Assembly: GCA_017940265.1 (NCBI GenBank)
Contig: JAGAYY010000025.1
Span: 182,177-206,176, forward strand
Direction: 5' to 3'
Length of the DNA stretch: 24,000 bases
Origin: Bacilli bacterium
Lineage (GTDB): Bacteria > Bacillota_I > Bacilli_A > RFN20 > CAG-826
In this document: in pieces, positions 1,885-24,000 of the stretch
How the letters are laid out: every line of letters begins with the position of its first letter
Numbering within the stretch: position 1 is the stretch's first letter
Made by a program: the position numbers and the translations under genes
The notes under the pieces: model-generated
The model's database searches: none
What the model was told of the DNA's origin: nothing
The model's input: only the letters and a program-made list of their open reading frames with translations

Positions 1885-2525
1885 TTAGCCACATAGGATC
1901 TAGTTTCGGGTATATAAACGTTAGTAATTCCATTCCACTCTAAGGCAGGCGAATAGCTTGGGTAATCATTTCCTTTCGCAACATCATTAAAGATATTGAG
2001 AGGTCGTAGGTTATCTAAATTAGGAGGAAGGGAGGGATTAATAATATCAACTACCCAACCATATTCGTTTTTCTGGGCAAATAGGTCTTTTCTAATTATA
2101 GCACCAGCTCTATCTAACCTAAACATCTCCGAACTTATTCCCTCAACTGGTTTAGCCTTTTCCCACATTAAGTCAATTGTTTCTTGTGGTAGACCCTTAG
2201 AAAACTTAAGATCTGAAGCTTTTCCATCCATACAAAAAATAAGATGATTCATAGTACTGAGCGACATTTTATCGGGATATTCTTTGGATATTTTAACTCC
2301 CAGAACTTTGAAAATAGTGTTAAGCTCTGATACCTTGGAAATTCTGGCCAACCCTATCTTCCCTGCCGGACTACGATGATATCCAGAAAGAAGTTTAGTT
2401 TCGGTGTTCCAAGAAAAGGCTGAGAAAAACTCCGAGCCGCCTAAGTCACCATCACTCCAATCCATTGCTTCACCGTTCGGCAACCATCCGTACTTTTCTA
2501 AATATTTTTTACTTAATTCTAACAT
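1881..2525 (-). CDS. hypothetical protein with degenerate HNH-like C-terminal domain
   Basis: C-terminus FRLDRAGAIIRKDLFAQKNEYGWVVDIINPSLPPNLDNLRPLNIFNDVAKGNDYPSY follows the layout of the small HNH family (...GW.vDHI.P.s.GG....NL.PL....N..Kg..yP). It has I in place of the catalytic His and PP in place of GG. The CCTTAT motif abuts the ATG. Confidence 0.7.
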   Translation of the reverse strand: MLELSKKYLEKYGWLPNGEAMDWSDGDLGGSEFFSAFSWNTETKLLSGYHRSPAGKIGLARISKVSELNTIFKVLGVKISKEYPDKMSLSTMNHLIFCMDGKASDLKFSKGLPQETIDLMWEKAKPVEGISSEMFRLDRAGAIIRKDLFAQKNEYGWVVDIINPSLPPNLDNLRPLNIFNDVAKGNDYPSYSPALEWNGITNVYIPETRSYVAK

Positions 2526-2538
2526 AACATATATAAGG
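2526..2538 (-). promoter_or_regulatory. CCTTAT-box (candidate promoter) abutting start codon
   Basis: Minus-sense CCTTATATATGTT, immediately followed by the ATG of 1881..2525. Confidence 0.5.
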
Positions 2539-3088: not shown

Positions 3089-5137
3089 ATGAATAAGCAA
3101 AGCTTGATTGTACCAAAAAGAATAAGGTACATTAGTGATTGGAAAGGATATAGTTTGAGAGATTATACCTTTCCTCATATTTTAAACAAAACCCTCACAG
3201 GATGTGGTTTCACTGAATATTGTATCAGAAATGATCAAAATCTAGTATTGGTATCTCCCCGTAGATTTCTCTTAGAGAATAAGGAAGATCAACATCAAGG
3301 GGAGATTTTCTATGCTAGAAATGATACAGAATCTCAGATCAATTTTGAGGTGGACGTATTATCAACATCTAAAGACAATTCCACCAAGAAAACTCCGACT
3401 GATCCTTCTATAATAGCTAAGGGAATTTTAGAGTTTAAGCATAGGGTTTTTGAATATTGTACTAGTTGTGCAATTAGGAAAAAACCATTCAAGATATTAG
3501 TTACCTATGATTCTTTCCGTCATGTCAAAGAAGTATTAGCTGAGATGGGAATCTTAATGGAAACTCAGATTGTAGTAGACGAATTCCAATCGATTTTCAT
3601 TGATTCACGCTTCAAATCTCATACAGAACTTGAACTTGTTAATCAACTTTTAGGCCTTAATAGAGTGTGTTTTGTCTCAGCCACTCCAATGTTAGATGAA
3701 TACTTAGATCGACTAGATGAATTCAAAAATCTACCGTACCTGGAATTAGATTGGAAGACAGAAGAGCCAGGGAGAGTAAAATCTCCTAGACTTGAAGTTA
3801 AATTTACTGTTAGAAGTCTTAATGAGGAAATTACTCACGTTATTCAATCTTACCTTAAGGGAAATTATGATATGAGGATGTTTCAAAATGAAGACGGTAC
3901 TTATCATGAGGTTGTTTCTAATCAAGGCGTATTCTTCATGAATTCAGTGAAAGGAATTTGTCAGGCTATTCGGAGTAATTTATTGACTATAGATCAATGT
4001 AATATTCTATGTGCTAAGACTGACGAAAATGAAAAGAAAATTAGAGCAGCATTTAATGAAGTTCTAAAACGAAAAGAACTTCCTAAGTTAGATAAGGTAA
4101 CGTATCCAAGAGTTATAGGCAGAATACCTAAGAAAGGTGAGCCCCATAAGATGTTTACTTTTTGTACAAGAACAGTTTATCTTGGAGCTGACTTTTATTC
4201 AACCTGTGCTAGGACTTTCATCTTCAGTGATAGTAATATAGACTGTTTAAGTGTTGATATTTCGATGGACCTAGAACAAATTCTAGGTCGTCAGAGATTA
4301 GATGAAAATCCATGGAAAGATTCTGCTTCACTATTTGTTAAAACTACGTCATTAAAAAATCGATTAACTAAGGAAGATTTTGATAGACAACTTGATAAAA
4401 AGATATTAAATAGTCAAGATCTCTTAGATATATACAGAGATGCTGACCCTACCAAGAGGCATACGTTAGCTAAAGCATATCAGGATAGAGCAAAGATGAT
4501 GAGTTATAAAGATGATTATGTTGCCGTTAATCATCATGCTGGATCCGATCTTCTGCCTGTATTCAATAACCTAATGTTAGTCTCCGAACAACGTGCTTTT
4601 GATGTTCAGCAAATCGATTATAAAAATAGATTTACTGTTTTTAACACTCTACAGGAAAATGAGATGATAGGAGTTAGAGATGAAGTTTATGAATTTGCTG
4701 AAAGGTTTAATCAGATCAAAGATACTACCACTAAACTTAGACTTCTTGTTGAATTTAGTGAAGCAGAAGGAATTAAGTTTGGAGATATGTTAAGGCTGTT
4801 TGAGCTTATTCCTCCCAAGTATAAAGACTACTACGTTATTATTGGTCCATCTAGAATTAGAACCCTATCTTACAAAGAATCTGAAATCAAACAAGAATGG
4901 AATAGGGTTTCCAGAAATAGTAAATCTATCGAAGGTGTTATTTCTAAGGTAAAGGAAACATTCAAGGTAGGTGAACGATATACTAAAGCTTGGATCAAGG
5001 AGAAGCTAAGAGAAATCTACACGGAGGAAGATTATCAGAAATCCCCTAAGGCAAATGATCTATCTGAATGGTTTGATATTAAATCAATAACAACAAAAGA
5101 TAGACAAAATGGATTTGAAATTATTAAAGAAAAATGA
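3089..5137 (+). CDS. superfamily 2 helicase (DExH-like) with atypical Walker A
   Basis: Motif I-like LTGCGFTE, motif II VVDEFQS, motif III FVSATP, motif V-like VYLGADF, motif VI QILGRQR. Confidence 0.8.
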   Translation: MNKQSLIVPKRIRYISDWKGYSLRDYTFPHILNKTLTGCGFTEYCIRNDQNLVLVSPRRFLLENKEDQHQGEIFYARNDTESQINFEVDVLSTSKDNSTKKTPTDPSIIAKGILEFKHRVFEYCTSCAIRKKPFKILVTYDSFRHVKEVLAEMGILMETQIVVDEFQSIFIDSRFKSHTELELVNQLLGLNRVCFVSATPMLDEYLDRLDEFKNLPYLELDWKTEEPGRVKSPRLEVKFTVRSLNEEITHVIQSYLKGNYDMRMFQNEDGTYHEVVSNQGVFFMNSVKGICQAIRSNLLTIDQCNILCAKTDENEKKIRAAFNEVLKRKELPKLDKVTYPRVIGRIPKKGEPHKMFTFCTRTVYLGADFYSTCARTFIFSDSNIDCLSVDISMDLEQILGRQRLDENPWKDSASLFVKTTSLKNRLTKEDFDRQLDKKILNSQDLLDIYRDADPTKRHTLAKAYQDRAKMMSYKDDYVAVNHHAGSDLLPVFNNLMLVSEQRAFDVQQIDYKNRFTVFNTLQENEMIGVRDEVYEFAERFNQIKDTTTKLRLLVEFSEAEGIKFGDMLRLFELIPPKYKDYYVIIGPSRIRTLSYKESEIKQEWNRVSRNSKSIEGVISKVKETFKVGERYTKAWIKEKLREIYTEEDYQKSPKANDLSEWFDIKSITTKDRQNGFEIIKEK

Positions 5138-5161
5138 ACTCAGAGTAAAGTGAGGAAAGAG

Positions 5162-5194
5162 GATAGGAACAATTAAGTTTCCTATCTTTCTTTT
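5162..5194 (+). terminator. rho-independent terminator
   Basis: gataggaa (5162-5169) / ttcctatc (5179-5186), then tttctttt. Confidence 0.6.
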
Positions 5195-5206
5195 CCTTAT
5201 TTATAT
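5195..5206 (+). promoter_or_regulatory. CCTTAT-box abutting start codon
   Basis: CCTTATTTATAT, directly followed by ATG 5207. Confidence 0.45.
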
Positions 5207-6241
5207 ATGAGAAAAGATAAACCAGATAGAAAAGAGCATAAGAATTCTGTTTGGTGTAGGGGAAGTGGACGTAGTAAGATGCTATTTGAATCGGAGTCTA
5301 AGGCAAATAATTTTATAAAGTTTAATGCAAAAACTATTCTAGAAGAGAGTGGTATGGCTCCGACTCGTGCTTATTATTGTCAATTTTGTTGTGGTTGGCA
5401 TGTTACTAAGCGTCCGGAGGAGTCCAAGGAATACTGTGATGCTAGAGATTTAGAAAAGCTACAGAGAGTATTAGGACTAGGACCTTCACCCAAACCAGAC
5501 ATAAAGAAAACCCTAACTGAACTACTTACTTCTTTGGAGATTGATAGTGTTAGGGTTCTTTTAAAAGATGAAGAAAGAAACCCAGACCATGATATTCAGG
5601 AGACCTTAAGGTGGCTGAACGGTGAAGAACATGATGTCTGGAGATATAAGGCTATTCAGGACGCACTTTCAAATCAAGTAGTATGGATTAAAACTTCGGG
5701 TTTATTGAAAGAAGCTGAGGATGGATTGGCAGAGATGAATGTACAAAAGACTGAGTCCTCTTTAAAAGAAGCTCGGAGATTATTTGGTCAATTCCGAGGT
5801 AGTGGATCTGTTTCTTTAGTTAAGGAATTTTCTGAGAGAGCTAAAGAGATCGATCTTGAATTAGCAGAGTTAGTCCCTATTAATGATATATGGGAATTAG
5901 TCGATGGGAAGTCTATATTAGAATATCAGGAACTACAACAAACGATCAACAATATTCTTAAGTTTTTAGCTTCTTGGGATGAACCCTCCGAAGAACCTGG
6001 CAAAGCTATAAAGAATTGTGGGAAAAGATTAATAGGTAGAGACGGGAACTCTGATATTTTAGACCGCTTCAAGTCTCTGATCCTTAAGGAAAACAAACTC
6101 CCTAAGGCTGCTCTCCTTCTTATTGCATGGAAGTGTAGTCGTGGAAAAGAACTAAGAATAGAGTATAAACGTAGAGCTTGGGTAGTGATAGATAAAGATC
6201 AAAGCCCAGATGGAATTTATGGAAGGTTACATTTAGTATGA
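5207..6241 (+). CDS. hypothetical protein with N-terminal Cys-rich zinc-ribbon-like motif
   Basis: N-terminus has C17 ... YYCQFCCGWHVTKRP (CxxCCxWH). The rest is predicted helical and acidic. Confidence 0.75.
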   Translation: MRKDKPDRKEHKNSVWCRGSGRSKMLFESESKANNFIKFNAKTILEESGMAPTRAYYCQFCCGWHVTKRPEESKEYCDARDLEKLQRVLGLGPSPKPDIKKTLTELLTSLEIDSVRVLLKDEERNPDHDIQETLRWLNGEEHDVWRYKAIQDALSNQVVWIKTSGLLKEAEDGLAEMNVQKTESSLKEARRLFGQFRGSGSVSLVKEFSERAKEIDLELAELVPINDIWELVDGKSILEYQELQQTINNILKFLASWDEPSEEPGKAIKNCGKRLIGRDGNSDILDRFKSLILKENKLPKAALLLIAWKCSRGKELRIEYKRRAWVVIDKDQSPDGIYGRLHLV

Positions 6242-6867
6242 AATTTACAGAATACAAGAGAACAAACCTAGGAGAGTTAATTATTGCTGCCGAAGATTAT
6301 TACAATAACCATTCTGATAATCGAGTTATTGTTTGTTTTGAAAGGGGTGAAGATTGTGGATGTAGGTGGTTCTTGAATAAGCAGAAAACAGGTCATTGGC
6401 GAACTTTCTTAGATGATCCATATGTTATTAAATCTGTCAAGAAGATGGGGAAAACTATGGAAGAATTTATTGCGGAGAAAGAAGCCGAAGAGAAACCAGA
6501 TCCATCTATTATTGGCGGTTTTCAAAGAATATATCCTGCGCATGATGACTTCCCAGCTGATTATGGAAATTATAGTATTAAAAATCTGACAGAGGCATTT
6601 ATTACTCATTTCTTAGATGCAGCTAAGGATTGGGTTATATTTGGTCAGACTCCATTATGGTTCGTGACTCTGGAAGATTATAAGGAATGGAAAGATTCTG
6701 ATTATGGAAAGAACTATGATCCTATTAAACATCTCAGGAATCTTTCAGTTCGTTGGGGATACATGACAGAGGAACAATGGAAACAAGATATTAATGAATG
6801 GAAGAAAGGACAGAATCAACATTACTATACTGTTCCTGATGATCCGTCTATGAGTTGGAAATACTAA
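6238..6867 (+). CDS. hypothetical protein
   Basis: ORF track. 4-nt overlap (ATGA) with the upstream gene. Confidence 0.75.
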   Translation: MKFTEYKRTNLGELIIAAEDYYNNHSDNRVIVCFERGEDCGCRWFLNKQKTGHWRTFLDDPYVIKSVKKMGKTMEEFIAEKEAEEKPDPSIIGGFQRIYPAHDDFPADYGNYSIKNLTEAFITHFLDAAKDWVIFGQTPLWFVTLEDYKEWKDSDYGKNYDPIKHLRNLSVRWGYMTEEQWKQDINEWKKGQNQHYYTVPDDPSMSWKY

Positions 6868-6870
6868 TTA

Positions 6871-6880
6871 CCTTATATGT
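6871..6880 (+). promoter_or_regulatory. CCTTAT-box
   Basis: CCTTATATGT, 14 nt upstream of ATG 6895, with an A-rich leader. Confidence 0.4.
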
Positions 6881-6894
6881 AAAAAGAAAAATTT

Positions 6895-7860
6895 ATGTGT
6901 TTATTTATTGACAAGAAAGATTGGTTTGTAGCTAAGAAAGATATTACATGCTACAAAGTCCTGGAAGGTAATGAGAAGGATGGATATCGTACTCCGTGTC
7001 AGGGTTGGCCAGTAAAACCAGGAACTACTCTTATCCCTGATGAATCAAGCCCCGTCATTGAGGAGAATGGATTTAAGTATGAATTAGGGGCAGGAGTTAT
7101 TCACGCTTATACTGGAATAGTCGAGGTTTCTGGCTCTCATATCTTCAAGGCTATAATCCCTGAAGGTACTAAGTTCTGGATACAATCTGACTTAACCGAA
7201 GTAGCAGCCGAGAAATTAATCCTGACCACTGAAGAATTAACCTCGGGAAAATGCCTGCCTGATTTAAAAGACCACCTAACACCGAAACTTAAGGTCTATA
7301 CTTCGGCAGGAGAAATAACCGAGGTAGGAAAAATCAGTGGTAGCGATATTCTTGGGGTTGTAACTTCTGGTGGTAAGATTGTTGGGGTGGAAGTTAGTGA
7401 GAGAATGTATTTTTCTGAATCTAACCCCAAGTATAGTGGGAAAACCTATGATAAACCATTCGAAGATATGGATGGCCTAGGAAACTGTGCCGAGATCAAG
7501 GAGAAAAGTACTGGAAAATTACTGGCTATTGAATGGGCTAAGTCGAAAGGCGGATATCTTCCATCATCCGGAGAACTTAAGGAAGCATTTATGGAGTTAT
7601 TTGAAATTAACTCAGTTTTAGTGATGGTCGGGAAGAAACCTATTATGTCAGATCGTTATTTCTGGACTTCTTCGATGAAGAGTTCTGAATCTATATGGAT
7701 CTGTAGCAGTAGTGGCGGTTACTATTGGGACAACTGGTGCTACTGCAGTTGGAACACCGCGGCTGTGTTCTTCCTTTCTTATCCAGCTCTCTTGAAAAAT
7801 AAGATGCAGGAGAAAGGAGCGAAATCATTGAATGATGGAGCGAAAAAGTTGACCGCCTGA
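6895..7860 (+). CDS. hypothetical protein with DUF1566-like C-terminal region
   Basis: GYLPSSGELKEAFMELF...DRYFWTSS...GGYYWDNW resembles the DUF1566/Lcl-C pattern (W.LPt..EL..l....YWSSt). Confidence 0.7.
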   Translation: MCLFIDKKDWFVAKKDITCYKVLEGNEKDGYRTPCQGWPVKPGTTLIPDESSPVIEENGFKYELGAGVIHAYTGIVEVSGSHIFKAIIPEGTKFWIQSDLTEVAAEKLILTTEELTSGKCLPDLKDHLTPKLKVYTSAGEITEVGKISGSDILGVVTSGGKIVGVEVSERMYFSESNPKYSGKTYDKPFEDMDGLGNCAEIKEKSTGKLLAIEWAKSKGGYLPSSGELKEAFMELFEINSVLVMVGKKPIMSDRYFWTSSMKSSESIWICSSSGGYYWDNWCYCSWNTAAVFFLSYPALLKNKMQEKGAKSLNDGAKKLTA

Positions 7861-7873
7861 GAAAGGCTGAAAA

Positions 7874-7886
7874 CCTTATATATGTA
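7874..7886 (+). promoter_or_regulatory. CCTTAT-box with no ORF behind it
   Basis: CCTTATATATGTA. No usable start codon follows (ATG-TAA). It precedes the ORF-free structured region. Confidence 0.4.
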
Positions 7887-8515
7887 ATAGAAAATTACCT
7901 AAAGCTGGGTTCTGTGTAAAACGGAATTCCAGCTTTTGATTCTGTTCTTATAAAAGAACTATGGAGTAGCTTATGCGAAGGTGCTGTGAGCGAGAGTTAC
8001 TCCGAGAGTATGGAGATAAGAACCATACCATCGTCTGAGCGATGTAAAAGTGTCACAGGATCAGAAACAATAGACTGAGGTGTTGTTAACTCGGTATCGT
8101 GAGATTTTCTGATTATTGGCTTAGAGCGGGAAAAATAAATGGTTTAACACAAAATTCATAGAACTTAATCTAGGGTAATATTAATAGCCCAGATAATATA
8201 AGTTTATGAATAATATAAAACAAAAAATCCTAGTATCGAAGAGGTACTAGACCTGGTAGGGTGATGGTTTCTTGGAAGACAGGAAATCTACAGTGCCCTA
8301 ATCAACACACGTAACCTAGGAACCTGGGTGAACTAATGGTGATCAAATCTCTGTATGGATTTGACTATCAGAGGAGTGTGAATTAACTTTGATTGGGTAT
8401 ACAGACCTGATCCCATGCTTAGAGGAATATTTCTGAAGAGGTTATATTCAATAGGTGAGGAGTTAATTAAGAAAGACCTGCGGAGAGAAGCCACAGGCGC
8501 AATCATTTTAAACTT
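7887..8515 (+). ncRNA. candidate long structured RNA or long 5' leader (class unknown)
   Basis: About 630 nt without a credible ORF. My hand count is about 44% G+C over 7961-8120. Helices: 7963-7968/7998-8003, 8008-8013/8023-8028, 8029-8033/8040-8044, 8060-8067/8106-8113 (8 bp), 8230-8237/8243-8250. Several helices contain T:G pairs that only work as U-G in plus sense. Confidence 0.35.
7903..7938 (+). terminator. terminator-like hairpin after 6895..7860
   Basis: agctgg (7903-7908) / ccagct (7929-7934), 20-nt loop, then tttg. The large loop lowers confidence. Confidence 0.45.
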
Positions 8516-8539
8516 TTGAGACAAAGTATATATAAATAT

Positions 8540-8767
8540 ATGAAACAAACAGAAAAAGAGATTCAGAGGCTATCCGACATGGTTAGTGCTGATCAACAAG
8601 TTTATGAGTTTCATCGTAGTGTTATAGATTTAGTCGGTCAGAAAGTAAATGGAGTCTGGACCACTGAAGCATTGAAGGTAGTCGGATATGCAACGCGTCA
8701 GGCAAGTAAGTTAGCTACTAGAATCAATACTAACAAACGATTACTCAAAGAACTTCAAGCAGGTTAA
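8540..8767 (+). CDS. hypothetical protein
   Basis: The ORF track starts at TTG 8516. The first ATG is at 8540 (MKQTEKEIQRL...). Confidence 0.65.
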   Translation: MKQTEKEIQRLSDMVSADQQVYEFHRSVIDLVGQKVNGVWTTEALKVVGYATRQASKLATRINTNKRLLKELQAG

Positions 8768-8805
8768 GGACCAACCTGCTTCCGAAACAAATAAATGGAT
8801 AAATT

Positions 8806-9003
8806 ATGAACAATACAACAGCAATTATCCTATGTGTATGGGCAATATCCTTATACATAGTCTCTAGACAGTATGACGAAGATGATAAGCTTAGTGTATG
8901 GAGAATAATACTTCTAGTACTTATTGCTCCACTCATTGCGCTTCATAAAATCTTTAGTGTTATTGCGATTATGGTATTAATTGAACTTAGACATAGTAGA
9001 TAA
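8806..9003 (+). CDS. small membrane protein (65 aa)
   Basis: ORF track. Two hydrophobic segments. Preceded by the leader ccgaaacaaataaatggataaatt. Confidence 0.6.
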   Translation: MNNTTAIILCVWAISLYIVSRQYDEDDKLSVWRIILLVLIAPLIALHKIFSVIAIMVLIELRHSR

Positions 9004-9004
9004 A

Positions 9005-9142
9005 ATGGAAAAGAAGACAACATTTTGGGATTTCGCAATTAAGAATCCCATTTCCTCCATAGTGATAGTAGGTCTGGTAACGGACTGTGTGTGGAGGGTA
9101 GCAAACTTAGTATTAAACTATTTAGGGGAGACGGAGGAATAA
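9005..9142 (+). CDS. small membrane protein (45 aa, not in ORF track)
   Basis: My translation: MEKKTTFWDFAIKNPISSIVIVGLVTDCVWRVANLVLNYLGETEE. It starts 2 nt after the previous stop. Confidence 0.45.
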   Translation: MEKKTTFWDFAIKNPISSIVIVGLVTDCVWRVANLVLNYLGETEE

Positions 9143-9178
9143 TCTCCCCATCAAAACGGACAAACAAATGGACAAATT

Positions 9179-9346
9179 ATGTATGCGAAGATTGTTAACA
9201 CATTAGAAACAGTAGTAGCCACCAGTATTGGTACGGCTATTGGCTCTGCAGTGTATGAGATAGGCAGAGCATGGATAAACTATAGATTCCTAGATGAGGA
9301 ATCTCCTGGTTATAAATTTAAAAATGGATTCGTATGGGAGAATTAA
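9179..9346 (+). CDS. small hydrophobic protein (55 aa, not in ORF track)
   Basis: My translation: MYAKIVNTLETVVATSIGTAIGSAVYEIGRAWINYRFLDEESPGYKFKNGFVWEN. Leader acaaacaaatggacaaatt resembles that of 8806. Confidence 0.45.
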   Translation: MYAKIVNTLETVVATSIGTAIGSAVYEIGRAWINYRFLDEESPGYKFKNGFVWEN

Positions 9347-9468
9347 TCAGAGATGTCGTTGGTATATTCTGGGGTGGAGTTATCAACGGTTTCAGAATTG
9401 GGGCAACAAACCTAGCGAAAGATCTTCTCATCGAATCTATTGAAAAACAAAAAGAGCGGATGGACTAA
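9334..9468 (+). CDS. small hydrophobic protein (44 aa, not in ORF track)
   Basis: My translation: MGELIRDVVGIFWGGVINGFRIGATNLAKDLLIESIEKQKERMD. 13-nt overlap with the previous ORF. Confidence 0.4.
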   Translation: MGELIRDVVGIFWGGVINGFRIGATNLAKDLLIESIEKQKERMD

Positions 9469-9507
9469 GAAACCAGCTCTTATCCGAAACAAATAAAGAA
9501 CAACAAA

Positions 9508-9708
9508 ATGAACAAATTAATAGCGTGGATTATAGCAACTATAATATATTCGTTGCTGATCCTAGGTATGGCTGGTGATTTCGGCCAAGAGACAAAGAAG
9601 TTTGCCACATGGATATTTCTTAGTGCATTAGCTTTCGGAGTATCGTATTGGTGGAAACCTTTAATCAGGCTCATTAAGAGATTATGGGCAGAAAGAAATG
9701 AAGAATGA
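9508..9708 (+). CDS. small membrane protein (66 aa)
   Basis: ORF track. Two hydrophobic helices. Leader ccgaaacaaataaagaacaacaaa. Confidence 0.6.
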   Translation: MNKLIAWIIATIIYSLLILGMAGDFGQETKKFATWIFLSALAFGVSYWWKPLIRLIKRLWAERNEE

Positions 9709-9719
9709 ATTGATATTGG

Positions 9720-9763
9720 AATTAGAGTGGTTACTATAATAGGTGATCACTCTAATTTTCTTG
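9720..9763 (+). terminator. rho-independent terminator
   Basis: Perfect 10-bp stem aattagagtg (9720-9729) / cactctaatt (9748-9757), then ttcttg. Confidence 0.7.
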
Positions 9764-9813
9764 TCGTTTAGTAATTTTAATCTAGACCTGATGAGCTCGT
9801 AAGAGCGAAACAG
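9761..9813 (+). ncRNA. hammerhead self-cleaving ribozyme, type III topology
   Basis: UUGUC|GUUUAG-uaauuuuaau-CUAGAC-CUGAUGA-GCUC-GUAA-GAGC-GAA-ACAG. All core nucleotides are present: C3-A9 = 9788-9794, G12A13A14 = 9807-9809, A15.1 9810 pairing U16.1 9764, and C17 9765. Stem I is 6 bp and stem II is 4 bp with a GNRA loop. Stem III is 4 bp and open. Confidence 0.8.
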
Positions 9814-9904
9814 CTATAGTATTAACTGCAGCTAAAGTCTGCGACCTATATTATAGAATATCAATAAATTTCAAGATATTATTAACAATTAAAAAGAACA
9901 AATT

Positions 9905-10195
9905 ATGGATAAAGAGAAAGTAAATTTAAAACAATGGCTTAAAAAGAATTGGCCAAGTGTTCTAGTGAGTGGGGTTAGTGTAATGGCTGTAGTTTATGAA
10001 TATTACCTCATCACAGAACTCAAGCGAATGAATGATGCCCTAGTTGCGGAGAACCGTGATTTAGAAAGAAAAAGTCTTGATCTAGCGGGTCAAGTCAGGG
10101 CAAGTGAACGAGAGAATCGACAGTTAACCCGAGAAATTGGAAACTTAAATTATCAACTCGGGAAAGTCGTTTCTAAAGAACATTTAAAACTTTAA
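9905..10195 (+). CDS. single-pass membrane protein with coiled coil (FtsB/DivIC-like or i-spanin-like architecture)
   Basis: TM segment WPSVLVSGVSVMAVVYEYYLI, then a heptad-like region LKRMNDALVAENRDLERKSLDL... Confidence 0.65.
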   Translation: MDKEKVNLKQWLKKNWPSVLVSGVSVMAVVYEYYLITELKRMNDALVAENRDLERKSLDLAGQVRASERENRQLTREIGNLNYQLGKVVSKEHLKL

Positions 10196-10198
10196 ACT

Positions 10199-10549
10199 AT
10201 GTACAACAGAAGATTCTTAGCGGCTAACATTAATGAAAATATGTTTAGCCCTGATGTTAGAACGGGTGGTTTTAGCATTGAACCAACAAAATCTAGTCTT
10301 TCCGAATTAAAAGGGATTGATAAAATCTATTGCTCTATTAATAATAAGGCATTAGTTAATACCCTTGAAAGAATCGGTATTAAGACAGAAAGGCTTAGTA
10401 AATTTATTGCCGAGGAAGGTGATACTATTTTCACCGTCCAAGTCAAAGGAATTGATGGACCAATCAGAAAATTCTCGGAGGATGAAGAGTTACCAGAAAC
10501 AAGTACTCTGATTGTAACGAGATATGATTTTGTGCGAAAATCGTCATAG
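10199..10549 (+). CDS. hypothetical protein
   Basis: ORF track. Starts 3 nt after the previous stop. Confidence 0.7.
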   Translation: MYNRRFLAANINENMFSPDVRTGGFSIEPTKSSLSELKGIDKIYCSINNKALVNTLERIGIKTERLSKFIAEEGDTIFTVQVKGIDGPIRKFSEDEELPETSTLIVTRYDFVRKSS

Positions 10550-10562
10550 TAATAAACTTAAA

Positions 10563-11999
10563 ATGAACAAGCAAATGGACAAAAGAAAAGAAGCAAAGTT
10601 TGATCCTGAGAGACAAATCGATTTTGTAAAATTAATCGGTGCACTTGATTGGACAAATGAAATTAATCCTGTTTCCCTGGTTAAAGCAGTGAACAAAGTA
10701 GCTAATCTTAAGGGAATAAAGAAGTATGAAACCAATGAGAAGTCCTTCGGGAGTTTGATTAAGAGTTTCGAGATGAGGGTATCAAGATTCGTCAATACCC
10801 GATTCCAAGGCAAAGATCGATTCTATCGCCTGAAAGAAGGATGTACGGTAGAACAGATGTTAGCTTTTGCAAAAACAGGAGAAGTCATTAAACCAAAGGA
10901 AATTATTGGGGAAAAGAAGTATTATATCCCTGAGGTTAAATCTGAGGAAATGGCAACAAAACGGGAACGTCGTGTTTTCCCGGATAATGAAGCTCTGATG
11001 AAAACTATTATAATTCTTAAGTACTTGAAAAAAGGAAATGGAGAATCGGTTGGATCAGAGGTGCGAAGCTTTGTAGAGAGTAACGCAGGCTGGAAACGTC
11101 AAAGATCTGTGTGTGGCAAACTTATGTCAGCATATCAAGAAGCTACCAAGATCTTGACTGAGTACTTAGATCTCCCAGAGAAGACGCTAGTAGTTAATCA
11201 TAACAAAACTAAGTTCAATGGAGATCTCTCTAAAATAGATGGGTATATAGATAGTCTTATTTCGCTTATTGATGGTGAAGAAGAAATGTCGAAAATACTC
11301 GCCTGGATGACTTTAATAGATGGTAAAGAGAGCAAAAAAGAGGAGGAAGAAGAAAACGTTGTGGTCATTCCTACAAGAAAAAAGACTACAGAAGTTGTTT
11401 ATACTTCTCCCGATACTAATGCGCCTAAGCAGTCAATTACATTGCCCACAGTAGAGCCCTTCGATGGTATTAAATCAAAGTGGAATAAGTCGTTGATCGC
11501 TGAAGTAATCCGTCGAGAAGGACGTGGGACTAGAATTGAGTATATCCCATTGTCCGGAACTATCAAGAAGAATAGATTTGTTGACATTCAAGTAACAGAT
11601 CTTAAGAGCTTGATTCGGGAAATCCAAAGTCAATTCCCGAATATCTTCTATGGTATTGATTCCCAAGGTTTCAGTATCAGCTCAGAAAAGATGCTCACTG
11701 AGTTCTGGTTGGCATATGATCAGAAGAAAATCACTGAGCAAGTGTTTATGAGACTTAAGATGAGCCTCAAAGATTTAACCGAGAATTATCCGGACCTTAA
11801 GTTCGAGATTGCTTCGGAGATTTCAGAGGAAGATAACATCTATAGTATCACAGTGGACAGAACTAATAAGGCCGAGCGGGCACTTACTAAGTTAGTTTGG
11901 AGTATGAGAAAAGGAGAAACAATCCTAGAATCACCCAATAACTGGACATTTAGAAGAGTAAATCTTATAATGAGTAAGCTTGGACTGACTGAACTCTAA
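10563..11999 (+). CDS. hypothetical protein
   Basis: The ORF track gives 10524. The in-frame ATG at 10563 (MNKQMDKRKE) avoids overlap with the upstream gene and has an A-rich leader. Confidence 0.75.
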   Translation: MNKQMDKRKEAKFDPERQIDFVKLIGALDWTNEINPVSLVKAVNKVANLKGIKKYETNEKSFGSLIKSFEMRVSRFVNTRFQGKDRFYRLKEGCTVEQMLAFAKTGEVIKPKEIIGEKKYYIPEVKSEEMATKRERRVFPDNEALMKTIIILKYLKKGNGESVGSEVRSFVESNAGWKRQRSVCGKLMSAYQEATKILTEYLDLPEKTLVVNHNKTKFNGDLSKIDGYIDSLISLIDGEEEMSKILAWMTLIDGKESKKEEEEENVVVIPTRKKTTEVVYTSPDTNAPKQSITLPTVEPFDGIKSKWNKSLIAEVIRREGRGTRIEYIPLSGTIKKNRFVDIQVTDLKSLIREIQSQFPNIFYGIDSQGFSISSEKMLTEFWLAYDQKKITEQVFMRLKMSLKDLTENYPDLKFEIASEISEEDNIYSITVDRTNKAERALTKLVWSMRKGETILESPNNWTFRRVNLIMSKLGLTEL

Positions 12000-12009
12000 G
12001 TTCACTAAA

Positions 12010-12060: not shown

Positions 12061-12090
12061 AACAAAAAAAAAGAAGGGAATTAACCCTTC
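12061..12090 (-). terminator. rho-independent terminator whose hairpin includes the stop codon
   Basis: Minus sense: GAAGGG-ttaatt-CCCTTC followed by T9 (plus-strand A-run 12064-12072). Confidence 0.7.
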
Positions 12091-12464
12091 TTATATTTTT
12101 CTTCAAGTACAACCTCAAAACATTCATATAATCCAATCTCCTTAAGAAATCCGATAACTTGCTCTACAGAACAGGGAGCTTCTTTATACCAATCATAGTC
12201 TCCGAAGTATTTACCGAAGATTTCCATTAGTTTTTTATAGAAGTCACCCTCTGATCCGAAGCTCTTAGTCTCAATCAGATACTTAGCAGCTTTGGTTAGT
12301 AGTTCCTTAGCGGTTGCACTCTTGAAGTCTATTACTACTTTGACTACTACAGGTGGATTTTGTTTTTTCACCACCTTTTTCTTCATTCGCCGGTAGTATG
12401 TAGTTACTCCACCGGCGGTCAGTAATAATATTAATCCTCCTAACAGTTTTTTATTATTCTTCAT
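12081..12464 (-). CDS. membrane-anchored or secreted hypothetical protein
   Basis: The ORF track starts at 12527. The internal ATG at 12464 gives MKNNKKLLGGLILLLTAGG (signal/TM-like) and is preceded by aaccgaaacaaacaac. The track's N-terminal extension runs through a strong hairpin. Confidence 0.65.
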   Translation of the reverse strand: MKNNKKLLGGLILLLTAGGVTTYYRRMKKKVVKKQNPPVVVKVVIDFKSATAKELLTKAAKYLIETKSFGSEGDFYKKLMEIFGKYFGDYDWYKEAPCSVEQVIGFLKEIGLYECFEVVLEEKYKKG

Positions 12465-13706: not shown

Positions 13707-15746
13707 CTAAGATATGGTAGTCTTTTTATCTGCTACTACTGCTTTCTTGATGATATTACCTAGTAGTTTCGGTAATTCATCTACTCCATGTCTTAAGTCT
13801 ATCACATTTTTAAACATGTCTTCAGCTCCACATACATTGTCAATAGTTACTTGAATGACAGAAAAACCATCATTCTCAAGTTTCTTAACATTTTCACGAG
13901 TATCATGTCTAGCAGCCAAACCTCTATAGTCGCAGGCACTAGGTTCACCATCACTAATAACAAACATAGTAACTGGTGATGAGGTAAATTTTCTTACTCT
14001 TTTACCTACTTCATACAGTGCGACACCATCTCTATTTTCATATAATCTTCTTCCACACATTCCGAGAGCATAAGGATCAGAATGTTTTTTTCCTTCCTTA
14101 TAAATTCGAATATCGGTAGAACCAGTATGAGTAATATCGGCAGTATGACCATAAATATAGAGATCTACTCCTGGCAAACTCCCTAAGGCTTCATTCAGGA
14201 GTATAGCGGCTTCTCTTGCTTTGGTCATCTTAGTAGAATAAGAGTATCGATATTCTTTACTATATTCTACCCAATCCGTTCCCATACTACCAGATTCATC
14301 TATTACAACGCAGACAGTACTCTTATTTGTTCTAACCTGTCCTTGTCGAATATAAACCTGTGGTACTCCTTGATATGCTTCGGCCAGTTTTGCTGTATCT
14401 AGGATTCCAGATCTACATCCATAAATATTAAAATCATAGTTTCGATCTGTATTCTTGATAAGTTTCTTAATGGCAGGAACAGATTTCTGAATTTGATTAG
14501 CAACTCGTCTATAATTCTCTGCATTTCCTTTGATATTTTCGAAATAGGTGGATTTCTTTTCCCCACGTTCGGCCATGCCAGTAATTAGTTTAGATAATAT
14601 AGAGCTATCTTTGATCTTACTAGAAATTTCAACTCCAGATATTGCACTTCCAGAATCAGAATCAGATCCATAATTTACTTTAACAAATCCCATTTCAAAT
14701 GCTTTTCCATATTTAGATAGCATTTTAACAACGTGACCAAGGCTAAGTTTCTTATCAGAACCTTTAGTTTTTAGTTCAAGATCCGGGAAAGTAGATATTA
14801 TTTCTTTATAAATTCCTAATCCTGCAATACAAGCTTCTTTAGTTGATTGTGGTAGAGGATTTAAGAATTTCTGAATAGCCTTATACTGTTCAGAATATTT
14901 CTCTAAGGTATCTTCGTCTAGATCTTCCGGATATCTGATCAACCTGAAGAGATTATTCATGAAAAGCTTAAATTGTACTTCTTTCTCGAAGGCAGAGTAA
15001 ATATTATTATTGCTATACTTAATAAAGTTTTTATATTGATAACTTTTAGCAATATCTATAAACTCTGTATATCCCGGACGTTCTTGAAGTAGTAAATTTT
15101 CAATTCTTTCATCTTCAATAAGATTAATTAATGAGATAATGAACAAAATACAATCTTCAAGTTTAGTAGTCTTACCATCAATAGTTATGCTTCTGGTACA
15201 AAGTCTATTAGAAAAATCCGTTAAGACTTTATACTCAGTGAACTTCAGATGAGAAGCTTCATGTACTCCTAAGCCACAACAGATATTAATTTTCTCTGAA
15301 TCACTATATCCAGATTCATCAAGTATTTTTGTTGGAATGAATACACGTCTAGATCCATCTTTAAGTCCTCCTTCTATTTCAGAACCATCACAAGATAATT
15401 GAATTTTAACATTGAAAGGAAAATCCAAAATAACAATCATATCTCTAGTAGATCTATAGACCTTACTAAGAAGTTCCTGTGCTTTATCAATATCGGTTCC
15501 GCTTGATCTTCCATACCAACTACTACTGCTTGATACAGTCTCTGACAGTCTAGAAGTTGAATATCCCAAAGAAGATTTATATCTAGATTTATAGGCATCT
15601 TTCCAAGAATAATCTTCTTTTTTAGATGAACCCCACCAATCCCATCCAGATGAAGAAGAGTCAGAGTCATAATAATCATCGTCATCATCTCTGCTACTTC
15701 TCCAATAACCAGAATAATATCCTTTTGACCACCAAGGTTTTGACAT
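13707..15746 (-). CDS. CobT-like vWA-domain protein with central HExxH motif and low-complexity N-terminus
   Basis: C-terminal vWA domain: MIDAS VVIDESGSMG, IYGHTAD, ENRDGVALYEVGKRV, FVISDGEPS (CobT-like spacing). HEASH at nt 15249-15263 with IEDERIE at 15099-15116. The N-terminal 85 aa are rich in S/D/W/Y. Confidence 0.85.
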   Translation of the reverse strand: MSKPWWSKGYYSGYWRSSRDDDDDYYDSDSSSSGWDWWGSSKKEDYSWKDAYKSRYKSSLGYSTSRLSETVSSSSSWYGRSSGTDIDKAQELLSKVYRSTRDMIVILDFPFNVKIQLSCDGSEIEGGLKDGSRRVFIPTKILDESGYSDSEKINICCGLGVHEASHLKFTEYKVLTDFSNRLCTRSITIDGKTTKLEDCILFIISLINLIEDERIENLLLQERPGYTEFIDIAKSYQYKNFIKYSNNNIYSAFEKEVQFKLFMNNLFRLIRYPEDLDEDTLEKYSEQYKAIQKFLNPLPQSTKEACIAGLGIYKEIISTFPDLELKTKGSDKKLSLGHVVKMLSKYGKAFEMGFVKVNYGSDSDSGSAISGVEISSKIKDSSILSKLITGMAERGEKKSTYFENIKGNAENYRRVANQIQKSVPAIKKLIKNTDRNYDFNIYGCRSGILDTAKLAEAYQGVPQVYIRQGQVRTNKSTVCVVIDESGSMGTDWVEYSKEYRYSYSTKMTKAREAAILLNEALGSLPGVDLYIYGHTADITHTGSTDIRIYKEGKKHSDPYALGMCGRRLYENRDGVALYEVGKRVRKFTSSPVTMFVISDGEPSACDYRGLAARHDTRENVKKLENDGFSVIQVTIDNVCGAEDMFKNVIDLRHGVDELPKLLGNIIKKAVVADKKTTIS

Positions 15747-15771
15747 ATGTAGTTTTTATTTAATTAAAAGT

Positions 15772-15793
15772 TTAGCCCCGGTTAAAGGGCTAA
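15772..15793 (-). promoter_or_regulatory. intercistronic hairpin between the AAA+ and vWA genes
   Basis: ttagccc (15772-15778) / gggctaa (15787-15793). In minus sense it is followed by ACUUUUAAUU. Confidence 0.4.
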
Positions 15794-15798
15794 TATTA

Positions 15799-16950
15799 TT
15801 AATATGATGAGATAGTCTTATAGATTGTACTTCTCTCACCGTCTGTAGTAGTACCTTCATATAATGGAAGGTAGATCATTTCCATAGCTTTACCCAAGTC
15901 CCATCCATCAACCACTAAGTTAGCTACCATAAGGGTTTCTCGGATTGATAGTGTACTAGAGATTTCCTGCTTGTTGTACAAGCTTCTAATATTATTAGCA
16001 ACCTTAACAATCATTTCAGAATCTTTCTCCTCCAGGCCGGTTCTCTTGCATAAAACAGCTTTTTCTTCAGTGCTAGGTATACATCCTAATTCTAAGGGGA
16101 AGAATCTATTAACAAGTGCACGGTCCATTTGATTAGTTCCACTATATTCAGAACCTACATTAGCGGTAGCAATAAATGTAACTTCGGGATGAATCTTAAT
16201 CTCACGAATATCTTTACCACCTGCAACCTCAATACTTAAGGTTCGACGATCATCAAGACACGGGAACAGCACATTATTAGACGAAAGTGCTGCTCGGTTA
16301 AGTTCATCTAGGAGAATTACACAAGGTTCCTGAATAACTTGAGTGAATTTGGCATAATCAAAAATAGATTTGCCACCTTCAAGTCTATGAACACCTAAAA
16401 GACTGCTGATTGGGTCAATAATAGATCCCATATCAAAAACATGAAGAGGGATATCCAATCTTGTACATACTTCTTTAACACAACTAGTCTTACCAGAACC
16501 AGTCGGGCCCACAATTAAAGTATTAACATGCTTCTTAATATTCCTCACCAGAAGATTCCAGTCATTTGAAGACATGTAGAATCCATCTTTCTTAGAGGAT
16601 GGGCAGACTAGTTTCGTATCTGACATAATCTTTGACAGAATAGTAGATTCTTTCATTGGATCTACGAAGGTTGTCTTGAATGTTTTATCATATTCAGCAA
16701 TCTCCGCTCTCATTCTGCCATCAAGTCGTCTGAAATTCTTAGTGGTATAGTATTTTTTACCAAACGAAAGATTCAAGGCATCACTTACAAAAATTGTGCC
16801 AATTGGAAATTTGCTTCGAATCTCTGTAGGACAACTAACCATAAGATTTTCATCTACTGGAGTTCCGTCAGATAATTTTTGACCAGGTAATGCATTAACT
16901 CTGATCTTAGATTTCTTTTTATCTTCTACAGTTTTAAAGTAATAATACAT
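15799..16950 (-). CDS. MoxR/CobS-like AAA+ ATPase (AAA_5 type)
   Basis: Walker A VGPTGSGKT, Walker B VILLDELNRA, sensor-1 FIATAN, DRALVNRF. There is an extra N-terminal domain of about 140 aa. Confidence 0.85.
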   Translation of the reverse strand: MYYYFKTVEDKKKSKIRVNALPGQKLSDGTPVDENLMVSCPTEIRSKFPIGTIFVSDALNLSFGKKYYTTKNFRRLDGRMRAEIAEYDKTFKTTFVDPMKESTILSKIMSDTKLVCPSSKKDGFYMSSNDWNLLVRNIKKHVNTLIVGPTGSGKTSCVKEVCTRLDIPLHVFDMGSIIDPISSLLGVHRLEGGKSIFDYAKFTQVIQEPCVILLDELNRAALSSNNVLFPCLDDRRTLSIEVAGGKDIREIKIHPEVTFIATANVGSEYSGTNQMDRALVNRFFPLELGCIPSTEEKAVLCKRTGLEEKDSEMIVKVANNIRSLYNKQEISSTLSIRETLMVANLVVDGWDLGKAMEMIYLPLYEGTTTDGERSTIYKTISSY

Positions 16951-16986: not shown

Positions 16987-17010
16987 CTCACATCAATAAG
17001 GAAATCAAAG

Positions 17011-18696: not shown

Positions 18697-18885
18697 TCAC
18701 CATAATTTACAACAAAATCCAAATTCATATACGCATAATAGTCTGAGAATGATCTTTACTCCACCTCTCGGCATCATACCAGTTCTCCAGACAGACCATA
18801 AGCCACATTTACTGTTTGCAAATTCTTTAATATTTACAAACCAACCTTTTAACATATTTTCTACATTTTCATATTGTTGATTCAT
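18697..18885 (-). CDS. hypothetical small protein
   Basis: ORF track. The CCTTAT box abuts its ATG, which supports it as a real gene. Confidence 0.5.
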   Translation of the reverse strand: MNQQYENVENMLKGWFVNIKEFANSKCGLWSVWRTGMMPRGGVKIILRLLCVYEFGFCCKLW

Positions 18886-18898
18886 TACATATATAAGG
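18886..18898 (-). promoter_or_regulatory. CCTTAT-box abutting start codon
   Basis: Minus-sense CCTTATATATGTA followed by ATG 18885. Confidence 0.5.
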
Positions 18899-23592: not shown

Positions 23593-23743
23593 CGTTTCCT
23601 TTATGTTTTTGTTTGCGTGAATAATCTTTCTTTGATTTATGCTCGATAGAAGGCCTTAATGATAAAAGCCTTCCGTATTGTTTGAGCTCATTTTCTCGTC
23701 TAACCTTTTCTGCAAATTTAGGTTTCTTTTTCTTCTTGCTCAT
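23576..23743 (-). CDS. small highly basic protein (55 aa, not in ORF track)
   Basis: My translation: MSKKKKKPKFAEKVRRENELKQYGRLLSLRPSIEHKSKKDYSRKQKHKGNDEIPE. The CCTTAT box abuts the ATG. It overlaps the start of 22948..23592 by 17 nt. Confidence 0.5.
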   Translation of the reverse strand: MSKKKKKPKFAEKVRRENELKQYGRLLSLRPSIEHKSKKDYSRKQKHKGNDEIPE

Positions 23744-23756
23744 AACATAAATAAGG
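23744..23756 (-). promoter_or_regulatory. CCTTAT-box abutting start codon
   Basis: Minus-sense CCTTATTTATGTT followed by ATG 23743. Confidence 0.5.
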
Positions 23757-23765
23757 GAGTCACAG

Positions 23766-23775
23766 CCTTATATAT
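23766..23775 (+). promoter_or_regulatory. CCTTAT-box abutting a GTG start
   Basis: CCTTATATAT followed by GTG 23776. Divergent partner of 23744-23756. Confidence 0.45.
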
Positions 23776-24000
23776 GTGAAATTATATAAAATAATTAGTA
23801 GAGATGTAGACGTATTATTAACTAGAAGACTAGATAATCCTGATCTATATGTTATTAAGATAAATGAAGAGATTCTAATAGCATATATAGGAGACCACGA
23901 AGTAATAGATATCAATGTTACTATGCAGGTTCGAAATAAACACAGAACTTTCAAAGTAATAGATGTGACCAATGCATTTTCTAAGAATCATGGAGTTAAT
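23776..24000 (+). CDS. hypothetical protein, 3' partial (not in ORF track)
   Basis: Frame open from GTG 23776 to the window end: (M)KLYKIISRDVDVLLTRRLDNPDLYVIKINEEILIAYIGDHEVIDINVTMQVRNKHRTFKVIDVTNAFSKNHGVN. The track's 23760..23972(-) ORF is its antisense shadow. Confidence 0.55.
   Translation, partial: MKLYKIISRDVDVLLTRRLDNPDLYVIKINEEILIAYIGDHEVIDINVTMQVRNKHRTFKVIDVTNAFSKNHGVN

Follow-up and report, generated by a model that had tools for sequence, protein, structure and literature searches.

Hammerhead ribozymes are found between genes in phages and prophages, on the same strand as the flanking genes, and have been proposed to cut long transcripts down to mRNAs the length of a gene or an operon (Perreault et al. 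2011, PMC3088659); the function of genomically encoded hammerheads in bacteria and phages is regarded as unresolved (review, PMC6765202). RiboJ, a synthetic insulator that combines the hammerhead of satellite tobacco ringspot virus (sTRSV) with a 23-nt hairpin, raises mRNA and protein levels, and stabilising terminal hairpins have been discussed in its case (PMC6206723). Here we analyse a hammerhead of type III at positions 9761-9813 of a 24,000-nt stretch of DNA (contig JAGAYY010000025.1, positions 182,177 to 206,176; the whole stretch is called the window throughout). Like the previously described phage examples, it is intergenic, is encoded on the same strand as its flanking genes and has a proposed role in transcript processing, and we find it at the same syntenic position in all 16 distinct related loci that reach far enough upstream. 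New here are the strict synteny of a hammerhead across a clade of large phages of the gut and rumen, a lineage-specific conserved hairpin joined to stem III, and a natural variant in which core nucleotide G5 is replaced by A. The original prediction, made from the letters of this DNA, had missed both the family-wide conservation at one syntenic site and the hairpin.

With the sTRSV(+) hammerhead and the Rfam family RF00008 the element shares the core CUGANGA...GAA, the pairs A15.1-U16.1 and G10.1-C11.1, a GUC or GUA cleavage triplet and an open stem III. The copy in the window also has a 6-bp stem I, a 4-bp stem II and a GNRA loop, which we take to be the classical sTRSV form, and most relatives have the stem III GCUGU/ACAGC that is presumably that of sTRSV. 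It differs from sTRSV in being located in a large-phage DNA operon rather than in a rolling-circle RNA replicon, and from sTRSV and RF00008 alike in that it scores below the Rfam gathering threshold, has in the window copy a stem III of only 4 bp and is followed on its 3' side by the lineage-specific hairpin.

The likeness to RiboJ is one of order: a type III hammerhead (9761-9813), a hairpin (9814-9856) and a translation-initiation region (ATG at 9905). Cleavage of RiboJ strips away upstream RNA and leaves a structured 5'-OH end, as is predicted for the module in the window. However, RiboJ is engineered and its hairpin lacks conserved loops, whereas the module described here is natural and its insulating effect is proposed by analogy. 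The hairpin of RiboJ is also said to stand a few nucleotides away from stem III, unlike the outer helix (P1) of the present hairpin, which follows stem III with no linker. A further parallel comes from the early genes of phage T7, in which intercistronic cleavage of a polycistronic transcript by RNase III leaves a 3' hairpin on the upstream mRNA. In T7 a protein enzyme of the host cuts a double-stranded site, whereas here the RNA itself would make it, with a 2',3'-cyclic phosphate and a 5'-OH as the predicted ends.

The hammerhead and its conservation

Read directly, the plus-strand RNA of 9761-9813 is UUGUC^GUUUAG-UAAUUUUAAU-CUAGAC-CUGAUGA-GCUC-GUAA-GAGC-GAA-ACAG, in which the caret marks the predicted cleavage site. 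The topology is that of type III: stem III is open, and loops cap stems I and II. Stem I consists of six pairs (9766-9771 with 9782-9787) with a single wobble, U9768-G9785, and the four pairs of stem III (UUGU/ACAG) include the 15.1-16.1 pair, A9810-U9764, and a terminal wobble, G9813-U9761. Nucleotide N17 is C9765, a non-G in agreement with the NUH rule. The site has all of the sequence-level features that define type III hammerheads, and the coordinates, invariant core positions, key pairs and stems of the original prediction are all correct on direct reading. Its distance of 140 nt to the gene at 9905 also holds, as measured from C9765 to the ATG; from the end of stem III to the ATG there are 92 nt.

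Relatives of the locus were collected from metagenome and viral collections through homologues of the 491-aa protein encoded downstream (10524-11999). This protein has 48 homologues, all of them metagenomic and most with 36-47% identity. Together with the window, the loci L015, L017, L020, L021, L023, L024, L026, L054, L055, L056, L057, L059, L061, L063 and L065 make up the 16 that we compared, and the identity of the relatives to the 491-aa protein is 28-49%. The intergenic order is conserved among them: a terminator-like hairpin, the hammerhead, the hairpin with helices P1 and P2, an A/T-rich box and the start codon.

The core strand CUGANGA is invariant in the 16 loci, with differences only at the freely variable position 7 (A in L055), and so are G12, A13 and A14 (GAA) and A15.1. 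The A15.1-U16.1 pair (alignment pair 8-89) is U-A in 16 of 16 and G10.1-C11.1 is G-C in 16 of 16, while the next two pairs of stem II covary; N17 is A in 14 loci, C in 2 and G in none. All six pairs of stem I are kept paired in 100% of the cells, with compensatory changes in five, and the variants of this stem include GUUUAG/CUAGAC, GAUAGG/CCUAUC, GUUAUG/CAUAAC, GUUGUA/UACAAC and ACUAGG/CCUGGU. Stem II likewise takes the forms GCUC/GAGC, GUUC/GAAC, GUCU/AGAC, GAC/GUC and GUC/GAC, and stem III ranges from 4 to 10 bp. Most relatives have an internal loop in stem I (A / AGA) together with an A-rich loop 2; in 11 of them stem I is extended distally, as a 6-bp stem Ia, the internal loop A / AGA and a stem Ib. 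Fast cleavage by hammerheads at physiological Mg2+ needs a tertiary contact between the loops of stems I and II; in the window these are a 10-nt loop 1 and a GUAA loop 2, and no Watson-Crick pseudoknot between them is evident from the sequence.

In the model-based alignment 97.3% of the cells are paired, and 14 of the 20 pairs have changes on both sides. The observed covariation values were reached by none of 500 shuffles, and slid controls were only 31-43% paired. RNAalifold, run on an unbiased MAFFT alignment, recovered the three stems, and 10 of its 15 predicted pairs are compensatory. On this comparative evidence the hammerhead is real and under selection at the RNA level. The original prediction of a complete type III hammerhead, with cleavage between C9765 and G9766, is backed by conservation and covariation across the 16 syntenic loci, and we consider it highly probable that the RNA of 9761-9813 cleaves itself as a hammerhead. 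Each relative has a single hammerhead per locus, and a second copy was not seen among them; a circular RNA or retrozyme-type arrangement was rejected on that ground.

The site also stands out within the window itself. We used a descriptor that is looser than the observed motif, requiring the core, G10.1-C11.1, at least 5 pairs in stem I, at least 3 in stem II and at least 4 in stem III, U16.1, and an N17 other than G. Its sole match in the window is the site at 9761-9813, and on 2000 dinucleotide-shuffled windows, both strands included, it matched once. A covariance model built from the 15 related loci with the window left out (R1) gave its top match in the 24-kb window at 9757-9817 (28.8 bits, E ~1e-5), with the runner-up at E 0.15.

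Among near-identical strains, 9 of 10 sampled contigs have the element intact and identical. The strain contig L003 (ERZ27256936 k141_236787) has three differences from the window in 6291 nt, at positions 9790, 9814 and 11465, and two of these differences fall in the RNA module formed by the hammerhead and the adjoining hairpin: G9790A, which replaces core G5, and C9814U, which turns the first pair of P1 into a wobble. The probability that two of the three differences land in the module is ~7e-4. Going by established hammerhead biochemistry, substitution of G5 should inactivate the ribozyme, and L003 appears, from these changes, to be a natural ribozyme-dead variant, which would mean that at least one natural genome has a dead copy.

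A hairpin joined to stem III

The outer helix of the hairpin, P1, pairs 9814-9822 with 9848-9856 (CUAUAGUAU/AUAUUAUAG). It is separated by a 4x4 internal loop, in which UAAC (9823-9826) lies opposite ACCU (9844-9847), from the inner helix P2 (UGCAG/CUGCG, 9827-9831 with 9839-9843), which is closed by the 7-nt loop CUAAAGU (9832-9838). Each of the 16 loci has one copy. The loops are near-invariant (UAAC/ACCU, and CUMAAGN for the 7-nt loop) while P1 and P2 covary: 11 of 13 pairs are compensatory, a score reached by none of 500 shuffles. In the 14 cleanly parsed loci P1 starts 0-1 nt past stem III, despite differing lengths of both stem III and P1; in L023 and L054, for which the script mis-set P1, the junction was judged by eye.

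The hairpin has no relevant Rfam match at E <=10 in 9700-9900 or at E <=5 in six relatives, and none of 100 other phage hammerhead loci, taken from the matches listed, contains it. A degenerate P1/P2 pattern run over genome contigs gave 3 matches, all of them without P1 and without a hammerhead, where about 4 were estimated by chance; this search of genome contigs found no prophage or host. Nor did a search by eye for pairing of the P1/P2 loops with the hammerhead loops or the leader box find consistent complementarity or covariation. The idea that P2 mimics a tRNA or anticodon arm was rejected, as ARAGORN detects no tRNA and the loop is, by our reasoning, unlike a T-loop and unlike a normal anticodon loop.

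Between the hairpin and the start codon lies the A/T-rich leader box, of which the window has one exact copy. In the cluster of small genes at 8516-9708, each gene is preceded by a hairpin (8476-8498, 8757-8781, 9128-9150 and 9453-9485) and an A-rich box like CCGAAACAAAUAAA, and these boxes resemble the one at 9869-9881. The combination of a hairpin and an A-rich box looks like a general intergenic punctuation of the phage.

Transcript context, proposed role and alternatives

The genes from 3089 to 11999 are all on the plus strand. Directly upstream of the hammerhead, 9718-9759 has the form of an intrinsic (rho-independent) terminator, that is, a stable hairpin followed immediately by a U-tract, and termination is predicted there. 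An equivalent hairpin with a U-rich tract is found upstream of the cut in 15 of the 16 loci, with the end of its stem ~8 to 35 nt before the cleavage site. By eye the U-tract can also be read as a Bacteroidota -7 promoter box, which would place the transcript start at or after the cleavage site; we judged this to be a coincidence of T-richness.

The motif CCTTATATATGTAA occurs 0-25 nt before start codons on both strands, including divergent regions, with 12 copies at <=3 mismatches against 6.9 expected. Copies are located at 2525-2538(-), 5195(+), 6871(+), 7874-7887(+), 16988-17001(-), 18885-18898(-), 23743-23756(-) and 23766-23779(+). It resembles what we assume to be the -7 promoter box of Bacteroidota, and it is probably a phage promoter or gene-start signal. 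Related phages have the motif as well, 1.4-2.1 kb upstream of the ribozyme, and on the plus strand no copy lies between the ribozyme and the downstream genes in the window or its relatives. Because the nearest copy is far upstream and none intervenes, transcription would in most genomes arrive at the ribozyme by reading through from the small-gene cluster. The exception is the most distant relative, L065, in which CCTTATATATGTAA ends 4 nt before stem III and the upstream hairpin is missing; there the ribozyme would form the extreme 5' end of the primary transcript. We infer that the downstream mRNA receives the same 5' end in L065 as in the other genomes.

The wider class was surveyed in the IMG/VR viral collection with a pattern for sTRSV-like type III hammerheads (CUGUM, 14-44 nt, CUGAUGAG, 6-20 nt, CGAAACAG). 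It matched at least 120 loci (L071-L190), with ~36 chance matches estimated, and several contigs have two or three copies. Among the matches listed, to which the following figures apply, stems I and II are properly formed in 108 of 135, and 85 unique hammerheads had enough flanking sequence for an analysis of layout. The 45 nt upstream of these are strongly structured (median z -3.1), and in 64 of the 85 only 0-2 nt separate the end of a strong hairpin from stem III. The 45 nt downstream lack structure (median z 0.0), with the first ATG at a median of 22 nt after stem III. The common phage order is a strong hairpin, the hammerhead, a short leader and a gene, a layout which suggests that these ribozymes generally serve to shape mRNA ends where genes begin. 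The lineage of the window resembles this set in having a strong hairpin just upstream and a start codon downstream. It differs in that its upstream hairpin is set off by a U-tract, stem III adjoins a helix on its 3' flank (P1) and the ATG comes after 92 nt, whereas in the IMG/VR set the upstream hairpin itself abuts stem III (0-2 nt) and the ATG is ~22 nt away. The original prediction was right that phage and prophage hammerheads are already known as a class, and the ribozyme itself is of a familiar kind; that the class is extremely common in phage contigs had gone unremarked.

Two contigs met in this work have further ribozymes. In a 208-kb viral contig (L088), a Pistol ribozyme at 4429-4495 (69.5 bits, above gathering) precedes a type III hammerhead by ~1.2 kb. 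The contig L001 (IMGVR_UViG_3300028588_000019), from an unrelated GC-rich phage, has hammerhead cores at 3134, 3969 and 8489. Those at 3134 and 8489 have an open stem I and a closed stem III, the type I layout, and the flank shown for 3969 leaves the motif incomplete; stem II and its loop in the copy at 8489, GCUC-GUAA-GAGC, are exactly those of the window.

The explanation that we favour, and regard as likely when taken as a whole, is an active type III hammerhead that splits a read-through transcript with an insulator-like outcome. RNA polymerase would read past the terminator-like hairpin at 9718-9759, and the RNA would fold into stems I, II and III, with the 4-bp stem III probably aided by coaxial stacking of the abutting P1 (9814-9822 / 9848-9856), before cutting itself in cis between C9765 and G9766. 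The upstream product would be the mRNA of the small-gene cluster, ending in the hairpin and UUUUCUUGUC with a 2',3'-cyclic phosphate. The downstream product would begin with a 5'-OH on G9766, itself paired in stem I, and would continue through the rest of the ribozyme, the P1/P2 hairpin and the A/T-rich leader into the genes at 9905-11999. The two halves of the operon would thereby be separated both physically and in stability, and the downstream mRNA would have a fixed and structured 5' end whatever lies upstream. A helix that abuts stem III could plausibly steady this short stem by stacking, and the short 5' strand would still be free to dissociate once the RNA is cut. Hairpins at the 5' or the 3' terminus of an RNA are known to stabilise it.

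For the insulator or processing role as stated, in which the read-through and the stabilising or insulating effect are argued by analogy, we see the chances as roughly balanced. In the original prediction, cleavage splits off the transcript of the gene at 9905 from that of the small-gene cluster and leaves a 5'-OH on the downstream part. This role fits the context, though the context falls short of proof: a terminator-like hairpin is directly upstream, the nearest plus-strand copy of CCTTATATATGTAA before the ribozyme is 1.9 kb away, with none between the ribozyme and the downstream genes, and the 85 surveyed phage hammerheads usually have a hairpin, the hammerhead, ~22 nt and an ATG.

Several observations weigh against the favoured explanation. 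If the upstream terminator is efficient, then with no promoter in between it would leave little transcript that contains the ribozyme, and the stabilising or insulating consequence is an argument from analogy. In the comparison with Rfam that the original prediction proposed, RF00008 (Hammerhead_3) scores 24.2 bits on 9700-9900 against a gathering threshold of 48.5; the E-value in this permissive scan is 0.0032 on 201 nt, or ~0.4 by our scaling to the whole window, and in a scan of the whole window no family reaches its gathering score. This is weak counter-evidence, because the threshold is likewise missed by all 11 of the other clear phage type III hammerheads that were scored, from 10 loci, and the best relative, with 33.2 bits, is also below gathering. 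The gathering threshold of RF00008 is a curation cut-off rather than a biochemical feature and a poor judge for phage type III hammerheads; in practice it misses them. In nearest-neighbour folding the hammerhead fold has -7.7 kcal/mol, against -11.6 for the minimum-free-energy fold, which contains stems I and II and both flanking hairpins without the 4-bp stem III; that stem III stays unformed in thermodynamic folding is common for hammerheads. By R1 no other member of the family is as divergent as the copy in the window, which scores 28.8 bits where the others score 48-87. This copy has the shortest stem III (4 bp, with a terminal G-U), although such a length is not unusual in phage hammerheads (12 of 90 surveyed, among the matches listed), and it lacks the extended stem I of most relatives. 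Lastly, the ribozyme may be dispensable, because the near-identical strain L003 carries the presumably inactivating G9790A.

Other explanations differ in what they take to be selected. The ribozyme could be real and yet maintained for 3'-end formation on the upstream RNA, as a fail-safe behind the terminator: RNA that is read through would be cut 6 nt past the hairpin tract, so that the upstream mRNA always ends in a protective hairpin, and the 5'-OH downstream RNA would be a by-product, possibly degraded. This agrees with the terminator-like hairpin immediately upstream in 15 of 16 loci, with the strong hairpin 0-2 nt before stem III in 64 of the 85 phage type III hammerheads among the matches listed, and with the type III topology, in which the 5' product retains only 4-10 nt and nearly all of the ribozyme goes with the 3' product. 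It does not account for L065, which lacks the upstream hairpin and has a promoter-like motif directly before the ribozyme, or for the conservation of the downstream side (P1/P2, leader box and gene order), and the start codon ~22 nt away in the wider class points to a role for the downstream mRNA. As an alternative to transcript splitting we find the fail-safe doubtful; most of the data are compatible with both, which are not mutually exclusive and may coexist.

A role for the hairpin in regulation can be put in two forms. The hammerhead and the hairpin at 9814-9856 may form a single two-domain module, in which the hairpin would both clamp the ribozyme by stacking and bind a ligand or a factor of phage or host origin, so that cleavage and downstream expression are regulated. 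We offer this tentatively and with limited expectation; if it is true, a clade of large Bacteroidota-type phages would have a controllable module of its own, the natural equivalent of the RiboJ insulator. More specifically, a regulated switch would work through a protein or small ligand that occupies UAAC/ACCU and the 7-nt loop and alters the stacking of P1 on stem III, and with it cleavage or downstream translation or stability. The near-invariant loops with covarying stems, the zero-nucleotide junction kept where the lengths of stem III and P1 differ, and the occurrence of the P1/P2 element, in the loci and genome contigs searched, only with this hammerhead lineage all speak for such a switch. 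On the other hand, the element is small, the Rfam scans give no match to an aptamer or protein-binding family and no partner was identified, other phage type III hammerheads work without P1/P2, and the loops could just as well be conserved for a purpose that does not involve the ribozyme. We regard the switch as unlikely.

Two further readings would remove the ribozyme or its RNA from the explanation, and both are effectively excluded because the stems covary. A chance motif or a decayed, inactive relic without function at the RNA level would be in line with the sub-gathering Rfam score, the short stem III that is unformed in the minimum-free-energy fold and the natural G5A variant. It is very improbable in view of the single match of the loose descriptor in 2000 shuffles, the invariant core and covarying stems in 16 loci that share only 28-49% identity in their flanking protein, and the intact core in 9 of 10 near-identical strains. 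The strong sequence conservation could also mark a promoter or operator that acts as DNA: CTAACTGTAACTAAAG resembles the promoter of T3 RNA polymerase, agreeing at 12 of 18 bases with what we take to be its sequence. However, CTAACTGTAACTAAAG is single-copy both in the 24-kb window and in each related locus, the substitutions within it preserve the pairing of an RNA hairpin (UGCAG/CUGCG, UGUAA/UUACG, UGCAA/UUGCG, GGAA/UUCC), and the outer stem is free to vary in sequence while its complementarity is kept. The T3-like promoter was rejected for its single copy and these compensatory changes, and a DNA-level element is the least probable of the readings considered here.

The locus is an unusually clean natural system for finding out what phage hammerheads do, with a single ribozyme at one syntenic position throughout a diverged clade. 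The ribozyme is placed between a terminator-like hairpin and a second conserved RNA domain, and a natural G5A core mutant is at hand as a dead control.

Features and gene neighbourhood

Table 1. Features of the window in and around the hammerhead, by position (AF2, AlphaFold2; ORF, open reading frame; pLDDT, predicted local distance difference test; TM, transmembrane)
Feature	Position	Strand	Basis or remark
Nearest upstream copy of the promoter-like motif CCTTATATATGTAA	7874-7887	+	Candidate transcript start, ~1.9 kb before the ribozyme
Terminator-like hairpin, 18 pairs, then U-rich tract UUUUCUUGUC	9718-9759	+	Terminator scan; part of the minimum-free-energy fold
Hammerhead stem III, 5' strand	9761-9764	+	UUGU; U9764 is U16.1; columns covary in relatives
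Predicted cleavage site, C17 (C9765) ^ G1.1 (G9766)	9765-9766	+	GUC triplet; cleavage inferred
Stem I hairpin, GUUUAG / CUAGAC with 10-nt loop UAAUUUUAAU	9766-9787	+	Read directly
Catalytic core C3-A9, CUGAUGA	9788-9794	+	Read directly
Stem II hairpin, GCUC-GUAA-GAGC	9795-9806	+	G10.1-C11.1 is G9795-C9806; 4 bp
Core G12 A13 A14 (9807-9809), then stem III 3' strand ACAG (9810-9813)	9807-9813	+	
Conserved hairpin P1/P2	9814-9856	+	3' of stem III with zero linker; present in 16/16 loci
A/T-rich leader box UUUCAAGAUAUUA	9869-9881	+	Aligns across relatives; box end to ATG ~24 nt
Downstream genes, predicted to be on the 3' cleavage product	9905-11999	+	ORF list; gene order kept in relatives
96-aa TM/coiled-coil protein	9905-10195	+	
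116-aa protein	10199-10549	+	
491-aa tandem winged-helix protein (predicted)	10524-11999	+	AF2 model, pLDDT 79
Bidirectional terminator-like hairpin closing the plus-strand gene block	12071-12092	both	Terminator scan

The 491-aa protein has no sequence family in Pfam, PHROGs or a PDB sequence search. Its model gives only weak matches to winged-helix folds (Pol III Rpc82, Cdt1 and PadR-like), and it is predicted from this model to be a chain of winged-helix domains. The small flanking proteins have no match in Pfam, PHROGs, the PDB sequence search or a fold search.

Several features of the window suggest that it is part of a large phage with a Bacteroidota-type host. An identical sequence of the 96-aa protein occurs on 23 metagenome contigs of up to 268 kb, most proteins of the window are without a Pfam or PHROG match, its start codons are without a Shine-Dalgarno sequence, and its MoxR-like ATPase has its closest cultured homologue in the Bacteroides phage BS162P1 (49% identity). 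Neither R1 nor Rfam finds a hammerhead in BS162P1. Against cultured phages, megablast of 8000-12000 and tblastn of the 491-aa protein were both without a match, and a 16-mer scan of viral contigs gave 25 loci, of which one is a true relative and the others are chance matches.

Just after the motif at 7874, the region 7861-8540 has ~650 nt without a plus-strand ORF of at least 35 aa. Patches of it are conserved at the nucleotide level in L054 and L023, without an Rfam match, and the region is a candidate for a long non-coding RNA or an extended leader. On the minus strand, at 13707-16950, the MoxR/CbbQ-type AAA ATPase (383 aa) adjoins a 679-aa protein. The equivalents of these neighbours in L065 are AAA_5 and VWA proteins, and a MoxR-VWA pair looks to be conserved in these phages.

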